Source: an archaeon GW2011_AR15
GTDB lineage: Archaea > Nanobdellota > Nanobdellia > Woesearchaeales > GW2011-AR15
Assembly: GCA_000830295.1 (NCBI GenBank)
Contig: CP010425.1
Coordinates: 753,424 to 777,423 of the forward strand
Length of the DNA stretch: 24,000 nucleotides
Direction of reading: 5' to 3'
Part shown: piece after piece, positions 9,538 to 17,585 of the stretch
Position numbering within the stretch: position 1 is the stretch's first letter
How the letters are laid out: each line of letters opens with the position of its first letter
The notes under the pieces: generated by a model
Told to the model about the DNA's origin: nothing
Database searches by the model: none
The model's input: the letters and a program-made list of their open reading frames with translations, nothing else
Made by a program: the position numbers and the translations under genes

Positions 9538-9628
9538 TGGGCCCGAGCGGATTCTCACCAATCCTTACCAGCATTGATGGGGCTAGTGTGTTTCCTCGCT
9601 TTGCTCGTCAAGCACACGTTATATAAAA
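9538..9628 (-). repeat. Type A tRNA-trailer insert ending in a 16-nt duplicate of the tRNA-Ile 3' end
   Basis: 9538..9553 is identical to 9629..9644 (tgggcccgagcggatt). The interior folds into two hairpins and is homologous to 16099..16180. Confidence 0.75.
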
Positions 9629-9752
9629 TGGGCCCGAGCGGATTTGAACCGCCGACCACTCGATTGCTGACTGATATGCTATCAGTCGAGCGCTCCATTA
9701 TCCCATCGCCCAGGTACAACCCAGGCGAGTGACCAGACTAAGCCACGGGCCC
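9629..9752 (-). tRNA. tRNA-Ile (anticodon GAU) with two introns (D-loop about 35 nt; canonical 37/38 about 15 nt)
   Basis: Minus strand: GGGCCCG TG GCTT[AGTCTGG..insert..]GAGC G CTCGA CTGATA[GCATATCAGTCAGCA]A TCGAG TGGTC GGCGG TTCAAAT CCGCT CGGGCCC A. All stems pair. No encoded CCA. Confidence 0.8.
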
Positions 9753-10184: not shown

Positions 10185-10245
10185 GACTTGACTTTATCAT
10201 TAAAAGCAATAGAGTTAGAAATAAAAGACAGTTTATGAAGTAAAG

Positions 10246-10349
10246 AAAAAGTGGGACTTCATTGATTCTCATCAAGCCTTTAAGAAAAGCCTTGAGGGAA
10301 ACAAATCCGGTTCTGTTAACAAGTTAACAGAACGACAAAATTAAAAAAG
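10246..10349 (-). repeat. tRNA-Phe trailer insert (type A-related 3' module) ending in a 15/16 duplicate of the tRNA-Phe 3' end plus T-run
   Basis: 10246..10261 matches 10344..10359 with one mismatch. Contains a perfect 11-bp inverted repeat at 10310..10333. The module AAAGGCTTGATGAGAATC aligns with GTAAGGATTGGTGAGAATC of the Ile insert. Confidence 0.7.
10343..10348 (-). terminator. Oligo-T run (T6) 1 nt after the tRNA-Phe discriminator
   Basis: Minus strand: AGGTCCC A C TTTTTT. Archaeal RNA polymerase terminates at oligo-T. Confidence 0.5.
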
Positions 10350-10459
10350 TGGGACCTCAGGGATTTGAACCCTGGACACCACGGTTACTAAATTCTCACC
10401 AGTTACAGACTGGTGGTGGTGCTTCAGCCGTGTGCTCTCCCAGGCTGAGCTAAGGTCCC
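10350..10459 (-). tRNA. tRNA-Phe (anticodon GAA) with a 36-nt canonical (37/38) intron
   Basis: Minus strand: GGGACCT TA GCTC AGCCTGGGA GAGC A CACGG CTGAAG[36 nt]A CCGTG GTGTC CAGGG TTCAAAT CCCTG AGGTCCC A. The intron contains the hairpin CACCAGT-CTGTA-ACTGGTG. Confidence 0.85.
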
Positions 10460-11862: not shown

Positions 11863-11976
11863 TAAGCCTCCGAAGATATCCTCACTTGCGTTCGGAAACC
11901 TTTCGGAGTCTTTAAATTAAGCCTCCGAAGGGTTAAGTCACTTTCGTTCCTGAACCCACGTAGCCTTAATAAATTA
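11863..11976 (-). repeat. Two tandem type B trailer units, each ending in a copy of the tRNA-Thr 3' end
   Basis: 11914..11932 is identical to 11971..11989 (19 nt). 11863..11875 is a third 13-nt copy. Each unit contains a GA-tandem/GNRA hairpin (11936..11951 and 11880..11895). Confidence 0.75.
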
Positions 11977-12077
11977 AGCCTCCGAAGGGAATTGAACCCT
12001 CGACCTGCGGATTGCTCCCAACCTTTTCTTAAAAGGCTGTTACAAGTCCGCCGCAATAGCCGCTATGCTACGGAGGC
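11977..12077 (-). tRNA. tRNA-Thr (anticodon UGU) with a 28-nt canonical intron
   Basis: Minus strand: GCCTCCG TA GCAT AGCGGCTA TTGC G GCGGA CTTGTA[28 nt]A TCCGC AGGTC GAGGG TTCAATT CCCTT CGGAGGC T. The intron contains the hairpin CCTTTT-AAG-AAAAGG. Confidence 0.85.
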
Positions 12078-12132
12078 ATTTTTGCCAAAGTAGCTTTCGA
12101 AAATCCTTGATTTTCGATGTGCTACGGAGGCA
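12078..12132 (-). repeat. Upstream insert beginning with a 13-nt duplicate of the tRNA-Thr 5' end
   Basis: 12120..12132 is identical to 12066..12078 (tgctacggaggca on +). Between the copies is a long hairpin: GTAGC-ACA-TCGAAAATC-AAG-GATTTTCGA-AA-GCTAC. Confidence 0.7.
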
Positions 12133-12177: not shown

Positions 12178-12849
12178 TCAGAACCACTGCTTCTCTTCAG
12201 ACATCCTTTTCCTTGCTTCTGAAACCCTGTTCAGCTCTAGATAAAACTTGAGGTCTTCTACAAATCTTTCAGCTCTCCTCCTCAGCTCTATCTCCTGTTC
12301 CCTGAACCTGTCCTTATAGATCATTCTCAGGAAATACTCATGCAGCACTTTCCCGAGTGCAAATTTTGAATTGTCGTTGAACCAGCCGTTTATGTCAATC
12401 TCAAGTATTGAGTTGAACCACATCAGGAATTCCCCTACATACGGCTTTATCTTTTTTCCCTTGTACATTATCTCTACACGTTTCATATTAGTCGTTAGGA
12501 CGTCAATATCCCACCTGTACCTGAAAAAGGGGTGCTCTCCTGCTATTCCGCCATGGTTATTTCTCAGGCGCCACCACCACCTTATCTCCTTGTGGCCCTG
12601 CTGGTCCCTGTATTCTCCATAGAAATCCTCTATCCACTTCCGGTCGCCGACACTGTGTATTGACGTCCATCCTTCCTCTGTAAGCCAGTGGTGCATAAAT
12701 CGGTATATATTCTCAAGATGGACTATCCTGACTTGTTTTATCTGTGTGCTGTATACAAGAAGGTTGCCTTCTGTCCAGGAGGTGTCTTCAGGAGGGGGTG
12801 CCCACTGGGTCCTTACTCCGCCGGGATGCTTAGGGGTCCAAATAGTCAT
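12178..12849 (-). CDS. Hypothetical Trp-rich protein (223 aa)
   Basis: Long clean ORF. Unusually rich in Trp and aromatics (e.g. EIRWWWRLRNNHGG, FFRYRWDIDV). Helical, charged C-terminus. No family recognised. Confidence 0.55.
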   Translation of the reverse strand: MTIWTPKHPGGVRTQWAPPPEDTSWTEGNLLVYSTQIKQVRIVHLENIYRFMHHWLTEEGWTSIHSVGDRKWIEDFYGEYRDQQGHKEIRWWWRLRNNHGGIAGEHPFFRYRWDIDVLTTNMKRVEIMYKGKKIKPYVGEFLMWFNSILEIDINGWFNDNSKFALGKVLHEYFLRMIYKDRFREQEIELRRRAERFVEDLKFYLELNRVSEARKRMSEEKQWF

Positions 12850-13711: not shown

Positions 13712-13824
13712 TAGATTAAAAGGGTAAGCAACACCAAAAAACCAGTTGTTTTTCTATTAAAACAGCTGGAAAACCAAATAATTTATATGATGGATTTACT
13801 TCCTACCTCTTATAAGGAGTAAAT

Positions 13825-14424
13825 ATGGCTGAAGCAATTAACCCAGAAACAAAAACAAATCTGCATCTAAATGTTAAAGATCCTGTTTCAGAAGGGAAAG
13901 TAACGCTTACCAAAAATGAGCAAAAAGTGCTAAAGCAGATAATTATTAAGGAAAAGCTATCAGACACTACTATAGCAGGCAGTATGAAGCTTTCCCAGCA
14001 GGCAGTTAACCAGATTAGGTCAAAGCTGGAAAACTTAGGCGTGATTAAAGGGTATTCTCCGATAATAGATTTTGAAAAAATAGGCATTACTGTTATCATT
14101 TTAATAGGTATCAGGCTTACACATAAAGTTTGGGAGAATAAGAAAGAATGGGAAATTGAACAAAACCTAAAGAAAATCCCTTTTATCTTTGAAGCTTATA
14201 GGATAGCCGGCCAGGATATCTCCCATGTACTATGCATGGGATTTAAAGATGACATTCAAAAAGATAAATTCATAAAAAAACTTCAGACTATATATGAAGA
14301 TCAGCTGAACCTTAAGTGGAGTTATTCTTTTTCTGCTAAAGATATAATACTACAGGATCAACTTGGGCTGTTGTATCAAATTATTGATAAAAAAGATTTT
14401 GAATTCGAAAAATTATTCTTGTAG
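13825..14424 (+). CDS. Lrp/AsnC-like transcriptional regulator with N-terminal extension
   Basis: 199 aa. HTH: LTKNEQKVLKQIIIKEKLSDTTIAGSMKLSQQAVNQIRSKLENLGVIKGYSPIIDFEKIG, followed by a RAM-like domain. GGAG 8 nt upstream of the ATG. Confidence 0.7.
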   Translation: MAEAINPETKTNLHLNVKDPVSEGKVTLTKNEQKVLKQIIIKEKLSDTTIAGSMKLSQQAVNQIRSKLENLGVIKGYSPIIDFEKIGITVIILIGIRLTHKVWENKKEWEIEQNLKKIPFIFEAYRIAGQDISHVLCMGFKDDIQKDKFIKKLQTIYEDQLNLKWSYSFSAKDIILQDQLGLLYQIIDKKDFEFEKLFL

Positions 14425-15939: not shown

Positions 15940-16024
15940 TAAATGCTTTTCCGATTGTCTAAAGGGACATTGGTTAAACTTGGTTACGTTCACGGAAACC
16001 AAGTTTCCGAGAACCCGAAAAAGC

Positions 16025-16098
16025 GGGGTTGTGGTCTAGCTTGGTATGATTCGCGGTTCGGGACCGCGAGGTCGGGGGTTCGAATCCTCCCAACCCCA
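16025..16098 (+). tRNA. tRNA-Pro (anticodon CGG), no intron
   Basis: GGGGTTG TG GTCT AGCTTGGTA TGAT T CGCGG TTCGGGA CCGCG AGGTC GGGGG TTCGAAT CCTCC CAACCCC A. Confidence 0.85.
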
Positions 16099-16180
16099 CT
16101 TTCAGGTACGCTTGAGCAAAGCGAAACGTACCTTCTCCGTCAATGCTGAAAAGGATTGGTGCGTAATCCTCCCAACCCCA
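16099..16180 (+). repeat. Type A tRNA-trailer insert ending in a 16-nt duplicate of the tRNA-Pro 3' end
   Basis: 16165..16180 is identical to 16083..16098 (aatcctcccaacccca). Homologous in block order to the Ile insert. Hairpins: GGTACG...CGTACC and GGATT-GGTGCGT-AATCC. Confidence 0.75.
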
Positions 16181-16186: not shown

Positions 16187-16241
16187 CGAGGTATTCAAGG
16201 TTCGGGACCTTGAGGTCTGGGTTCGAATCCCAGGAACCCCA
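16187..16241 (+). pseudogene. 5'-truncated tRNA-Pro(CGG)-like fragment: part of D-loop, anticodon arm, T-arm, 3' acceptor strand
   Basis: CGAGGTATT CAAGG TTCGGGA CCTTG AGGTC CTGGG-type T-arm (TGGGTTCGAATCCCAG) GAACCCC A. Stems are perfect but differ from the neighbouring tRNA-Pro. No 5' acceptor strand (GGGGTTC) or D-stem 5' strand is present upstream. Confidence 0.6.
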
Positions 16242-16245
16242 CATC

Positions 16246-16364: not shown

Positions 16365-16473
16365 AGCGAGGGGGGGGACTCGAACCCCCGATGATCGGGA
16401 TCTACATGTCATAGCGTTAGCTCATCATCCCGGATGTTGCAGCCGATTGCCTTAGCCGCTTGGCGACCCCCGC
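16365..16473 (-). tRNA. tRNA-Cys (anticodon GCA) with a 37-nt intron at 37/38
   Basis: Minus strand: GCGGGGG TC GCCAAGCGGCTAAGGC A ATCGG CTGCAA[37 nt] CCGAT CATC GGGGG TTCGAGT CCCCC CCCTCGC T. The intron carries ATGATGA inside a GGGAT/ATCCC stem. Confidence 0.8.
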
Positions 16474-17443: not shown

Positions 17444-17451
17444 AAAAAAAA
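17444..17451 (-). terminator. Oligo-T run (T8) directly after the distal tRNA-Arg 3'-end copy
   Basis: Minus strand: GCAGGCTCA TTTTTTTT. The tRNA itself is followed by TAAGCGAAG with no T-run. Confidence 0.55.
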
Positions 17452-17511
17452 TGAGCCTGCGAGGAGAACTCACTTGCGTTCGTGCTCCTCTGGTCTCATT
17501 CGCTTCGCTTA
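17451..17511 (-). repeat. Type B tRNA-trailer insert ending in a 15-nt duplicate of the tRNA-Arg 3' end
   Basis: 17451..17465 is identical to 17511..17525 (atgagcctgcgagga). Hairpin GAGGAG-[CACGAACGCAAGTGAGTT]-CTCCTC; its 3' strand is part of the duplicated segment. Confidence 0.75.
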
Positions 17512-17585
17512 TGAGCCTGCGAGGATTTGAACCCCGGTATTCAGCTTAGAAGGCTGATGTCCTATCCAGGCTGGACGACAGGCTC
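17512..17585 (-). tRNA. tRNA-Arg (anticodon UCU), no intron
   Basis: Minus strand: GAGCCTG TC GTCC AGCCTGGATA GGAC A TCAGC CTTCTAA GCTGA ATAC CGGGG TTCAAAT CCTCG CAGGCTC A. 74 nt. Confidence 0.9.

Follow-up and report, generated by a model that had tools for sequence, protein, structure and literature searches.

Structured inserts bounded by copies of the tRNA 3' end look like miniature tRNA-targeting cassettes in a groundwater archaeon

Why should a tRNA gene be followed, within 100 nucleotides, by a second copy of its own 3' end? The question was raised by a stretch of 24,000 nt (hereafter the window; positions 753,424 to 777,423 of contig CP010425.1, assembly GCA_000830295.1) from archaeon GW2011_AR15, a Woesearchaeota-type (DPANN) archaeon from the Rifle aquifer. 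An earlier note, made from the sequence alone, had described same-strand duplicates of the 3' end behind the genes for tRNA-Ile, -Phe, -Thr, -Pro and -Arg, and none behind tRNA-Ala and tRNA-Cys. We therefore first re-examined these repeats, and every coordinate and identity in that description was found to hold. The duplicates are 16/16 at Ile, 15/16 at Phe (extending to 19/22 if the T-loop/T-stem part is included), 16/16 at Pro and 15/15 at Arg. At Thr the 19/19 match is really 20/20 (11913-11932 = 11970-11989), with a third copy of 13 nt. All seven tRNAs were confirmed with Rfam, while ARAGORN found only 3 because four of them carry introns. Each repeat runs on the tRNA strand and ends at, or a few nt beyond, discriminator position 73. 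The 3'-terminal suffixes of these tRNAs almost never recur beyond 7 nt in random 150-nt windows of the same sequence, except where such a window covers a tRNA or one of its copies, and the analytic expectation for a 13-mer within 150 nt is about 2e-6 per tRNA. The loci are identical in several independent assemblies, so they are not assembly artefacts; an apparent 101-nt deletion at tRNA-Phe in GCA_013331675.1 is an NN assembly gap. The observation of the earlier note is thus real and far beyond chance: five of seven tRNA genes are followed by an insert of 44-92 nt and then by a same-strand copy, here called X, of tRNA positions 58/63-73. When the contig was followed for about 10 kb on each side of the window, no further tRNA was met.

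To see what lies between the copies, the inserts were compared with each other, and they fall into two related families. In type A, two hairpins are followed by X. Behind tRNA-Ile (9629..9752, minus strand, two introns, Rfam 47.8 bits), whose positions 58-73 are the inner copy of X, the type A insert is 75 nt long (9554..9628, minus). Its first hairpin, HP1, contains GAGCAAAGCGA and its second, HP2, is CAUCAAU-GCUGGUAAGG-AUUGGUG. The outer copy of positions 58-73 (AATCCGCTCGGGCCCA; 9538..9553, minus) comes next, followed by CTTCTTTT. Behind tRNA-Pro(CGG) (16025..16098, plus) the type A insert has 66 nt (16099..16164, plus), and the outer copy of positions 58-73 (16165..16180, plus) is followed by T6. 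A divergent type A insert lies behind tRNA-Phe (10350..10459, minus, one intron, 52.2 bits, followed at once by CTTTTTT). This insert (10268..10343, minus) has a 10-bp hairpin GTTCTGTTAA/TTAACAGAAC and an HP2-like stem with a GCU...AAAGG loop, and it ends at a decayed outer copy of positions 58-73 plus CTTTTT (10246..10267, minus; AATCAATGAAGTCCCACTTTTT; 19/22). The type A model scored 68.7, 67.7 and 59.7 bits at Ile, Pro and Phe respectively. HP2 is 96% paired, with 3 compensatory pairs. A GGAUU/AAUCC pairing was considered for type A, but it is supported neither by Phe nor by L098, another metagenomic contig with units of this kind; it is the HP2 stem that covaries.

In type B, a GA-bracketed mini-hairpin linker is followed by an imperfect, tRNA-specific complement of X and by a conserved apex (short helix, tandem G.A, AC/GU and a GNRA loop). 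With X, the unit folds into an imperfect hairpin that resembles the cognate acceptor/T minihelix. Behind tRNA-Arg(UCU) (17512..17585, minus) the unit has 46 nt (17466..17511, minus), with linker AAGCGAAGCGAA, complement TGAGACCAGAGGAG and apex CGAACGCAAGTGAG; the outer copy of positions 60-73 plus T (17451..17465, minus) is followed by T8. Behind tRNA-Thr(UGU) (11977..12077, minus, one intron, 54.9 bits) two units of different subtype stand in tandem. Unit 1 (11933..11976, minus; 44 nt) consists of linker, imperfect complement of X and apex GGAACGAAAGTGAC, and is followed by the middle copy of positions 61-73 plus TAATTTA (11913..11932, minus). Unit 2 spans 11876-11919, its first 7 nt (TAATTTA) overlapping the middle copy; the rest (11876..11912, minus) carries apex CGAACGCAAGTGAG. 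The outermost copy, of positions 63-73 plus TA (11863..11875, minus), is followed by the original flank TATTTTCT. The type B covariance model scored 52.5 bits at Arg, and 49.7 and 45.1 bits for units 1 and 2 of Thr. In the upper stem and apex 82.5% of cells are paired against 66% in shuffles, a value reached by 0 of 500 shuffles, and 6 pairs change on both sides. The complement is cognate-specific, at -14.7 against -8.1 kcal/mol, and the cognate ranks first in most rows.

Two features had been missed by the earlier note, both at tRNA 5' ends. First, the 5' 13 nt of tRNA-Thr are duplicated 54 nt upstream. The 5' unit (12078..12132, minus) begins with this copy, continues with the hairpin TCGAAAATC-AAG-GATTTTCGA and a partial complement, and mirrors the units at the 3' end; a TATA box plus 24 nt points at the upstream copy, and the promoter precedes the outermost copy. 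Secondly, tRNA-Pro has a leader of roughly 60 nt (15964..16024, plus), probably a decayed 5' unit, which starts with a degenerate copy of its own 5' end at the promoter-defined start (14/22 matches; 21 of 5000 shuffles do as well) and continues with a 10-bp hairpin. At the 3' side, the native terminator follows the outermost copy at Thr, Pro and Arg, where the first T-run of 4 or more lies behind that copy. In contrast, Ile (T4) and Phe (T6) have a T-run directly after the tRNA.

The earlier note left open whether the inserts are miniature integrative elements or their scars, insertions with long target duplications, T-loop introns, or co-transcribed trailer RNAs. The intron reading, in which the outer copy is the real 3' exon and the insert plus the inner copy is a T-loop or acceptor-region intron removed by the archaeal splicing endonuclease, could be rejected. 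Although these tRNAs are rich in introns, including ones at non-canonical positions, and although the 5' acceptor strand pairs with the outer copy in minimum-energy folds of the Arg and Pro precursors, the 4-bp central helix of a bulge-helix-bulge motif would have to form between two identical sequences, which is impossible unless they are palindromic, and the folds show no such motif. In addition, the inner copy already completes a normal tRNA, while the outer copy at Phe has 3 changes that would break the T and acceptor stems.

To see whether the units are peculiar to this locus, other sequences were examined. Type A or B units with their own matching X occur behind seven tRNAs in six other metagenomic contigs, namely L082 (Gln), L090 (Pro(UGG)), L091 (His), L092, L098 (Ala and Pro(CGG)) and L114 (Gln). 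The type B covariance model found 12 matches in 166 kb of related DNA, all of them next to an X copy. A scan of a collection of genome contigs with a type A 20-mer gave only two chance bacterial hits. A viral collection was scanned with the type A core, the type B 14-mer, the type B consensus, linker-plus-apex patterns and the cargo protein described below, and gave only coding or chance matches, or nothing. A search with a PDF-like protein had suggested that there were no close relatives, but a search with Top6A showed this to be wrong; one of the closest Top6A relatives had no tRNA at the corresponding position. Orthologous tRNAs in syntenic relatives lack the inserts: in the relative L111 the Thr (with the same flank TTATTTTCT), Ile, Phe and Arg sites are empty, as is the Arg site of L108. 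A near-identical strain, L005, also differs at Phe, where 92 nt (10245-10336) are replaced by 17 unrelated nt. This is not a clean empty site, since 13 nt of the supposed insert are kept. Moreover, precise loss by slippage between X copies could also produce empty orthologous sites, so gain and loss are not polarised.

At tRNA-Gln in three relatives (L082, L113 and L114), X copies bracket a cargo of 0.75 kb with two ORFs, together with zero or two type B units. In L082 a 66-nt perfect repeat flanks 757 nt with two overlapping ORFs; L113 has X-cargo-X without units; and L114 has X-U-X-cargo-X*-U*-X*, where U stands for the unit. These were the only three cargo-bearing loci seen, all at one tRNA, and the right end of the cargo shows no significant hairpin. 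Between L082 and L114 the unit next to the tRNA is 91.5% identical, the 3' part of the tRNA 90.2% and the cargo 69.8%, while the distal unit has decayed. X is not always a local copy: in L114 the outer X keeps C65 whereas the tRNA has T65 paired with a compensating A49, and in L082 the left flank of the second unit matches only 7 nt. The position-65 mismatch in L114, the lack of the insert in relatives, and a unit beside an X copy that is not part of any tRNA speak further against an intron.

These results also bear on the possibility that X is a true target-site duplication made by an enzyme cutting with a long stagger, a Cas1/casposase-like integrase being the model. Casposons insert at tRNA 3' ends with 14-15 bp duplications, a geometry and preference that the inserts resemble (PMC4779613, PMC5137440), and tandem reuse of one site, seen here at Thr, is known for casposons. 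Type A repeats are always 16 nt, covering positions 58-73 (Ile, Pro and Pro of L098), which would agree with this, whereas type B repeats range from 11 to 20 nt, which would not. However, no insert has terminal inverted repeats, a duplication mechanism cannot create the tRNA-specific complement inside the insert, and in L082 and L114 the outer X carries bases that cannot have been copied from the local flank or the local tRNA. No cas1 or polB gene was found in the window or its flanks. This reading is therefore disfavoured and seems unlikely. For a MITE or insertion sequence, too, inverted termini are lacking, and the repeats of 11-20 nt exceed the short fixed duplication of 2-10 bp. An origin by local replication errors, such as template switching or snap-back synthesis at small hairpins, seems very improbable. 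The order X, complement, X with small stable hairpins at both junctions resembles tandem-inversion-duplication products, and the mirror-image 5' unit at Thr suggests a strand-symmetric DNA process, but the junction modules (GAGCAAAGCGAA; CGAACGMAAGTGAG) are conserved between different tRNAs and different organisms, which largely refutes it. Furthermore, the complement is imperfect while X is perfect, and X-bounded cargo cannot arise in this way.

A more serious alternative, though we consider it unlikely, is that the units are functional parts of the tRNA transcription unit. Each would be a co-transcribed 3' trailer that mimics the cognate acceptor/T minihelix and serves as a processing, termination or insulation module, or as a decoy or substrate for tRNase Z, RNase P, the CCA-adding enzyme or a synthetase; the patchy distribution would then reflect easy precise loss by slippage between X copies. 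For type B the mimicry is structurally true, and such a function cannot be excluded. GNRA loops, tandem G.A pairs and G.U pairs lie on the tRNA strand with covariation, the complement is cognate-specific, and no T-run stands between tRNA and unit at Thr, Pro, Arg, L082, L090, L091 and L092, a T-run following the outer X instead. The unit next to the tRNA is as conserved as the tRNA 3' part, and a relative encodes the RNase P protein Rpr2, so leaders and pseudo-5' ends could be processed. On the other hand, close syntenic relatives do without the units at the same tRNAs, and Ala and Cys in the window have none. At Phe a T6 terminator precedes the unit and its X has decayed, the outer X of L114 did not follow a compensated change in the tRNA, and units also sit beside X copies 0.8 kb downstream that are not part of any tRNA. 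No Rfam family matches (E<=1), and no C (RUGAUGA) and D (CUGA) boxes or H/ACA boxes were found in the correct order, and a C/D-box or H/ACA sRNA was dismissed. A K-turn was dismissed because the internal loops are symmetric, a primer-binding site for reverse transcription because there is no CCA complement, a CRISPR-like array because the 'spacers' share modules, and a guide RNA because the scaffold is too small and, in type B, the putative guide is base-paired.

Taken together, we favour, with a probability of about 0.5, the reading that X is an att-like core and that the inserts are integrase-less mini-cassettes or scars of tRNA-targeting integrative elements. The interpretation of the earlier note is thereby partly supported, since the first of its possibilities is the one that the evidence favours. 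What the analysis establishes directly is the placement of each insert between an intact tRNA and a second X, the two structured families and their recurrence with matching X behind other tRNAs, the absence of inserts from orthologous tRNAs, and the X-bounded cargo at tRNA-Gln. The rest is inferred. In this view, X acts as a recombination core, and behind these tRNAs lies a small array, tRNA-X-[cassette]-X-[cassette]-X, moved in trans by an unidentified site-specific recombinase. An element of the form X-U-X-cargo would have two usable X sites, and integrating through one and excising through the other would leave U behind as a scar or yield a cargo without U, which would generate all arrangements seen. 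Recombination with the tRNA would reset X and keep it perfect, while the internal complement would lag behind and so be imperfect. The unit would be transcribed with the tRNA, and selection would therefore keep the extra X tied up in a local hairpin so that pre-tRNA folding and 3' processing are not disturbed. Against this, no integrase, Cas1, transposase or HUH gene lies in the window, its 20 kb of flanks or the cargo, and the complement has no proven role in recombination. A unit plus one X is only about 58 bp, too small for a double-stranded circle, so that unit-only sites must be scars or move as single strands, either of which is inference. The conservation of the proximal unit would equally fit a function of its own.

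A bolder form of this idea, doubtful but compatible with the data, is that these are a previously undescribed class of tRNA-end-specific, integrase-less hairpin cassettes in DPANN archaea. Their recombination site would be a folded single-strand mimic of the cognate acceptor/T minihelix, an archaeal analogue of integron attC or CTX-phage attP recombination with tRNA 3' ends as the docking site; alternatively, or in addition, the units would be expressed as cognate 'mini-tRNA' minihelix RNAs with a cellular role. If the main reading holds, tRNA genes of small-genome DPANN archaea carry fast-turning-over arrays of miniature cassettes. This would be a new route of gene capture, here of a possibly toxin-antitoxin-like pair (only on weak sub-threshold matches), and of tRNA-locus variation, in a lineage whose mobile elements are almost unknown. 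Linker mini-hairpin, cognate complement and GA/GNRA apex give a compact signature that can be searched genome-wide to find the responsible recombinase, and the units make it directly testable whether archaeal recombinases act on folded single-stranded sites and whether a cognate acceptor/T minihelix RNA can exist and be processed in cells. In practice, duplicated tRNA ends and orphan tRNA pieces can mislead tRNA annotation and assembly.

The earlier note knew of no described element class with this combination of features, and our literature searches agree. Of the systems that come closest, the dicistronic tRNA-sRNA genes of Nanoarchaeum equitans and plants, whose downstream RNA is released by RNase Z, likewise encode a small structured RNA immediately after a tRNA, in N. 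equitans in a related archaeal lineage and with the same leaderless-type promoter spacing (PMC3491384). The present units, however, have no C/D boxes, end in a copy of the tRNA's own 3' end and are absent from orthologous loci in relatives. Casposons share the tRNA 3'-end target, a duplication of similar length, and the reported tandem reuse of a site with leftover remnants (solo TIRs; PMC4779613), but differ in their terminal inverted repeats and their cas1 and polB genes, while the inserts here vary in repeat length and are 100 times smaller. In integron cassettes with folded attC sites, and in CTX-phage-type folded single-strand attP sites, arrays of cassettes also sit next to a fixed site, each cassette ends in an imperfect hairpin whose 3' side matches the chromosomal site, and cargo-free cassettes exist; the one cargo seen here may likewise be toxin-antitoxin-like, but only on weak sub-threshold matches. 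Here no RYYYAAC/GTTRRRY core sites occur in any unit and no intI gene in the DNA read, no IntI or Xer link has been shown, the target is a tRNA 3' end, the hairpin sequence is specific to each tRNA, and single-strand recombination is pure inference. Compared with integrative elements in tRNA genes and their integrase-less derivatives (CIMEs, tandem accretion at one att site), the inserts here are only 44-92 nt (757 nt with cargo), carry conserved structured modules and an internal complement of the att core, come without a detected integrase, have a short identity block (11-20 nt) that starts in or after the T loop, and have mirror units at tRNA 5' ends. With those elements they share a regenerated intact tRNA, flanking direct repeats identical to the tRNA 3' end, stacking of several inserts at one tRNA, integrase-less versions bounded only by att sites, and empty sites in related genomes.

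The 24-kb window (42% G+C) comes from an uncultivated archaeon of the Rifle aquifer, and one of its proteins is annotated in NCBI as Candidatus Woesearchaeota. The same locus occurs, identical, in many independent assemblies, one of which has a 1.16-Mb contig. Seven tRNA genes, Ile, Phe, Thr, Pro, Ala, Cys and Arg, were found with Rfam, whereas only three were detected by ARAGORN because four of the seven carry introns. tRNA-Ile (9629-9752, minus strand) has two of them, 38 nt in the D-loop region and 16 nt at the anticodon loop, and the orthologue in the related contig L111 has a different intron layout. The tRNA-Cys intron (16391-16429, minus strand) carries GATGATGA, which is C-box-like, both here and in two relatives (contigs L108, about 14210-14250, and L110, about 13795-13840), and this may be a C/D-box sRNA inside the intron. 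The genes around the tRNAs are ordinary housekeeping genes, such as those for topoisomerase VI, a Hel308-like helicase, NMD3 and a GTPase. No integrase, transposase or Cas1 is present among them.

The earlier note had claimed that the 3' ends of five tRNA genes recur as same-orientation copies a short distance downstream, and this observation was confirmed, every coordinate and identity in it being correct. tRNA-Ile is followed by an insert of 75 nt and an outer copy (X) of its positions 58-73 (16/16), and tRNA-Pro by an insert of 66 nt and a copy of positions 58-73 (16/16). At tRNA-Arg the insert is 46 nt and X comprises positions 60-73 plus one base (15/15). At tRNA-Thr there are two 44-nt units; the first X comprises positions 61-73 plus TAATTTA (20/20), and the outer one is a 13-nt copy of positions 63-73 plus TA. 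At tRNA-Phe the insert is 76 nt and X, positions 58-73 plus CTTTTT, is decayed (19/22). Such suffix matches almost never occur elsewhere in the window beyond 7 nt, except at the tRNAs and their copies, and tRNA-Ala and tRNA-Cys have none. At Thr, Pro and Arg the first T-run of four or more follows the outermost copy, whereas Ile (T4) and Phe (T6) have a T-run directly after the tRNA.

Several features escaped the note. First, tRNA-Thr, and probably tRNA-Pro, carries a mirror-image unit at its 5' end. The first 13 nt of tRNA-Thr are repeated 54 nt upstream, with a hairpin and a partial complement in between (12078-12132, minus strand). At Ile, Phe and Arg the promoter element TTTAAAT lies 24 nt before the first base of the tRNA, while at Thr it lies 24 nt before the upstream copy. 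The 5' unit has therefore pushed the promoter outward, just as the 3' units push the terminator outward. tRNA-Pro has a roughly 60-nt hairpin leader (15964-16024, plus strand) that begins, at the promoter-defined start, with a decayed 14/22 copy of its own 5' end; 21 of 5000 shuffles do as well. A relative encodes the RNase P protein Rpr2, so such leaders could be removed. Secondly, an orphan 3' part of another tRNA-Pro(CGG), consisting of the anticodon arm, T arm and acceptor 3' strand GGAACCCCA, lies at 16196-16243 (plus strand), between the outer Pro copy and tRNA-Ala. It starts 15 nt after the T6 that follows the outer Pro copy and ends 2 nt before tRNA-Ala, which has no obvious promoter of its own. 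Its T arm and acceptor resemble the tRNA-Pro of the relative L098 more than the window's own, and no matching 5' piece lies in the window. It may be a displaced end from an older integration or gene replacement.

The inserts fall into two related families. Type A is found at Ile and Pro, as a divergent copy at Phe, and at Pro in the relative L098. It has a first hairpin that contains GAGCAAAGCGA and a second hairpin, CAUNNNN-GCUGNNAAGG-NNNNGUG, and X follows 2-3 nt later. The second stem is 96% paired across the four copies, with three compensatory pairs, while slid controls give about 30%. Type B is found at Arg and twice at Thr. It begins with a short linker, often a GA-bracketed mini-hairpin such as AAGCGAAGCGAA, followed by a 12-14-nt imperfect complement of X, a conserved apex, and then X itself. 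The apex comprises a 1x1 pyrimidine mismatch, a 2-3-bp helix that covaries (AC/GU, AG/CU, UCC/GGA), tandem G.A pairs, AC/GU and a GNRA loop. Eight type B units from five tRNA types show 82.5% pairing against 66% in shuffles; none of 500 shuffles reaches this, and six pairs change on both sides. The complement pairs far better with its own X than with the X of other units (-14.7 against -8.1 kcal/mol). Each unit is therefore an imperfect look-alike of the acceptor/T minihelix of its own tRNA. The motif GAGCWWAGCGA(A) is shared by the type B linkers and the first hairpin of type A, thus the two families are built from shared modules. No Rfam family matches.

To see whether these families occur elsewhere, metagenome contigs were scanned for a T-loop followed by the type B apex. 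This identified archaeal tRNAs in five unrelated low-GC contigs (L082 Gln, L090 Pro(UGG), L091 His, L092, and L098 Ala), each followed by a type B unit and an exact copy of that tRNA's own 3' end. L098 also carries the Pro(CGG)...Ala(CGC) pair of the window, and its Pro is followed by a type-A-like insert and a copy of its own positions 58-73, which differ at five bases from those of the window's Pro. A covariance model of type B finds 12 matches in 166 kb of related DNA, all of which lie next to an X copy. That the modules are shared between tRNAs and organisms makes it very improbable that the units arose by local template-switch duplication. The roughly ten bacterial hits of the scan match the chance expectation in number and carry no tRNA copy. 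In the bacterial metagenome contigs L087, L093, L095, L097, L100, L102 and L103, however, the 13-mer GAACGMAAGTGAS sits at the apex of terminator-like hairpins after tRNA or tmRNA genes. The number of hits is about what chance predicts but the apical position is striking, and the 13-mer may be a generally favoured stable hairpin cap (tandem G.A plus a C-GNRA-G loop).

Topoisomerase VI subunit A has many relatives with 76-91% identity. In contig L111 (83% identical, strongly syntenic), tRNA-Thr(UGU) is almost identical to that of the window but has neither the 5' nor the 3' units, and its 3' flank (TGTTATTTTCT) matches the flank after the window's outermost copy (TATTTTCT). The Ile, Phe and Arg tRNAs of L111 are likewise bare, and L108 has a bare tRNA-Arg at the same place, which was missed by Rfam at the gathering threshold. 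In relatives, tRNA-Phe and tRNA-Ile lie only 3 nt apart, and ORFs with faint LAGLIDADG_3 hits lie directly beside or overlap tRNA-Ile (L111) and tRNA-Arg (L108) (L111 15055-15284; L111 15266-16090; L108 11217-12082). One strain with only 2 SNPs per 2.3 kb of flank (contig L005) differs at Phe, where 92 nt of the insert and outer copy (window 10245-10336) are replaced by 17 unrelated nt (TAATTAATAGTCTCTTA; L005 3880-3896). Just upstream, between L005 1528 and 1539 (window ~12678-12711, inside the ORF at window 12178-12849), the alignment breaks: ~34 nt of window sequence correspond to ~10 nt in L005, and the ORF is called 8 codons shorter in L005 (215 vs 223 aa), although a scaffold gap is not excluded there. 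In another public assembly (GCA_013331675.1, DUFY01000008.1; contig L106, 484-485) an NN gap removes 101 nt spanning the tRNA-Phe 3' half and part of the insert, and the repeat-bounded locus probably broke the assembly there. These results show turnover, but they do not strictly polarise it, because slippage between two X copies would delete a unit precisely. The bare relatives also speak against a T-loop intron, a reading that we consider most unlikely since it fails in addition on the bulge-helix-bulge logic and on the decayed outer copies.

The key additional finding is that X also bounds gene-carrying DNA. In L082, tRNA-Gln is followed by X-unit-X, then by 757 nt with two overlapping small ORFs, and then by a second identical unit, which makes a 66-nt perfect direct repeat followed by the terminator-like flank. 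The second ORF has weak, sub-threshold AbrB/MazE- and MqsA-like antitoxin similarity. Homologues of that ORF exist and led to two more loci. In L113 (cargo 84% identical) the arrangement is tRNA-Gln-X-cargo-X with no unit at all, whereas in L114 (70% identical) it is X-unit-X-T6-cargo-X*-unit*-X*, with the distal block decayed. X copies therefore delimit cassettes from 44 nt to 0.75 kb, and units can also sit beside an X copy that belongs to no tRNA, which is a further difficulty for the intron reading. In L114 the outer X keeps C65 although the tRNA now has T65 paired with a compensating A49. So X is a historical copy or is carried by the element, and it is not kept identical by selection. 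Between L082 and L114 the unit next to the tRNA is 91.5% identical, that is, as conserved as the tRNA 3' part (90.2%), while the cargo is 69.8% identical. A genuine RNA function of the proximal unit, as a trailer RNA that mimics the minihelix, would explain this conservation equally well. It remains the main alternative, though we consider it clearly less likely, and it is not exclusive of the cassette reading.

Taken together, the repeats, the two structured families with their own matching X, the bare orthologous tRNAs and the X-bounded cargo at tRNA-Gln are shown by the analysis, whereas the mechanism that follows, including co-transcription of unit and tRNA, is inferred. The most likely possibility, to which we give a probability of about one half, is that X is an att-like core and that the loci are small arrays of integrase-less cassettes behind (and sometimes before) tRNA genes, moved by a recombinase encoded elsewhere. 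A circle of the form X-unit-X-cargo would have two usable cores, and integration through one and excision through the other would yield unit-only scars (the window), cargo without a unit (L113) and doubly flanked cargo (L082, L114). Each recombination would reset X to the tRNA sequence while the internal complement drifts, which would explain a perfect X with an imperfect partner. However, no recombinase was found in any of the DNA read, a unit plus one X is too small to circularise as duplex DNA, the Phe variant is not a clean empty site, the cargo evidence rests on one tRNA type, and the role of the complement is unproven. In this view the unit would be transcribed with the tRNA, and a free second X can compete for the 5' acceptor strand: in minimum-energy folds of the Arg and Pro precursors the 5' strand is paired with the outer copy. 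Sequestering X in a local hairpin is therefore expected to be selected, and this would explain the strong conservation of the tRNA-proximal unit and the decay of the distal ones. The mini-hairpins (GCGAAGC-type) and the unit hairpins are also predicted to fold as single-stranded DNA, and a folded single-strand recombination site, as in integron attC or CTX-phage attP, is therefore possible, by analogy only. The note had left open miniature integrative elements or their scars, long target duplications, T-loop introns and trailer RNAs; its interpretation is thus partly supported, the first of these being favoured.

A staggered-cut, casposase-like insertion would fit the target and the size of the duplication, but it does not fit the missing inverted termini, the variable repeat length or the tRNA-specific internal complement, and it seems unlikely. 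Full-text literature searches, and the casposon and Nanoarchaeum papers that were read, revealed no precedent for the miniature size of the inserts, the structured modules, the cognate complement, the 5' mirror units or the occurrence in DPANN archaea. It is possible, though doubtful, that the loci represent a distinct recombination system or RNA class. tRNA 3' ends as integration sites, att duplications, tandem accretion and integrase-less att-bounded derivatives are all well established; what differs here is that the inserts are miniature, that conserved structured modules are shared between inserts at different tRNAs, that a cognate complement makes each unit a minihelix look-alike, that mirror units occur at 5' ends, and that the hosts are DPANN archaea.
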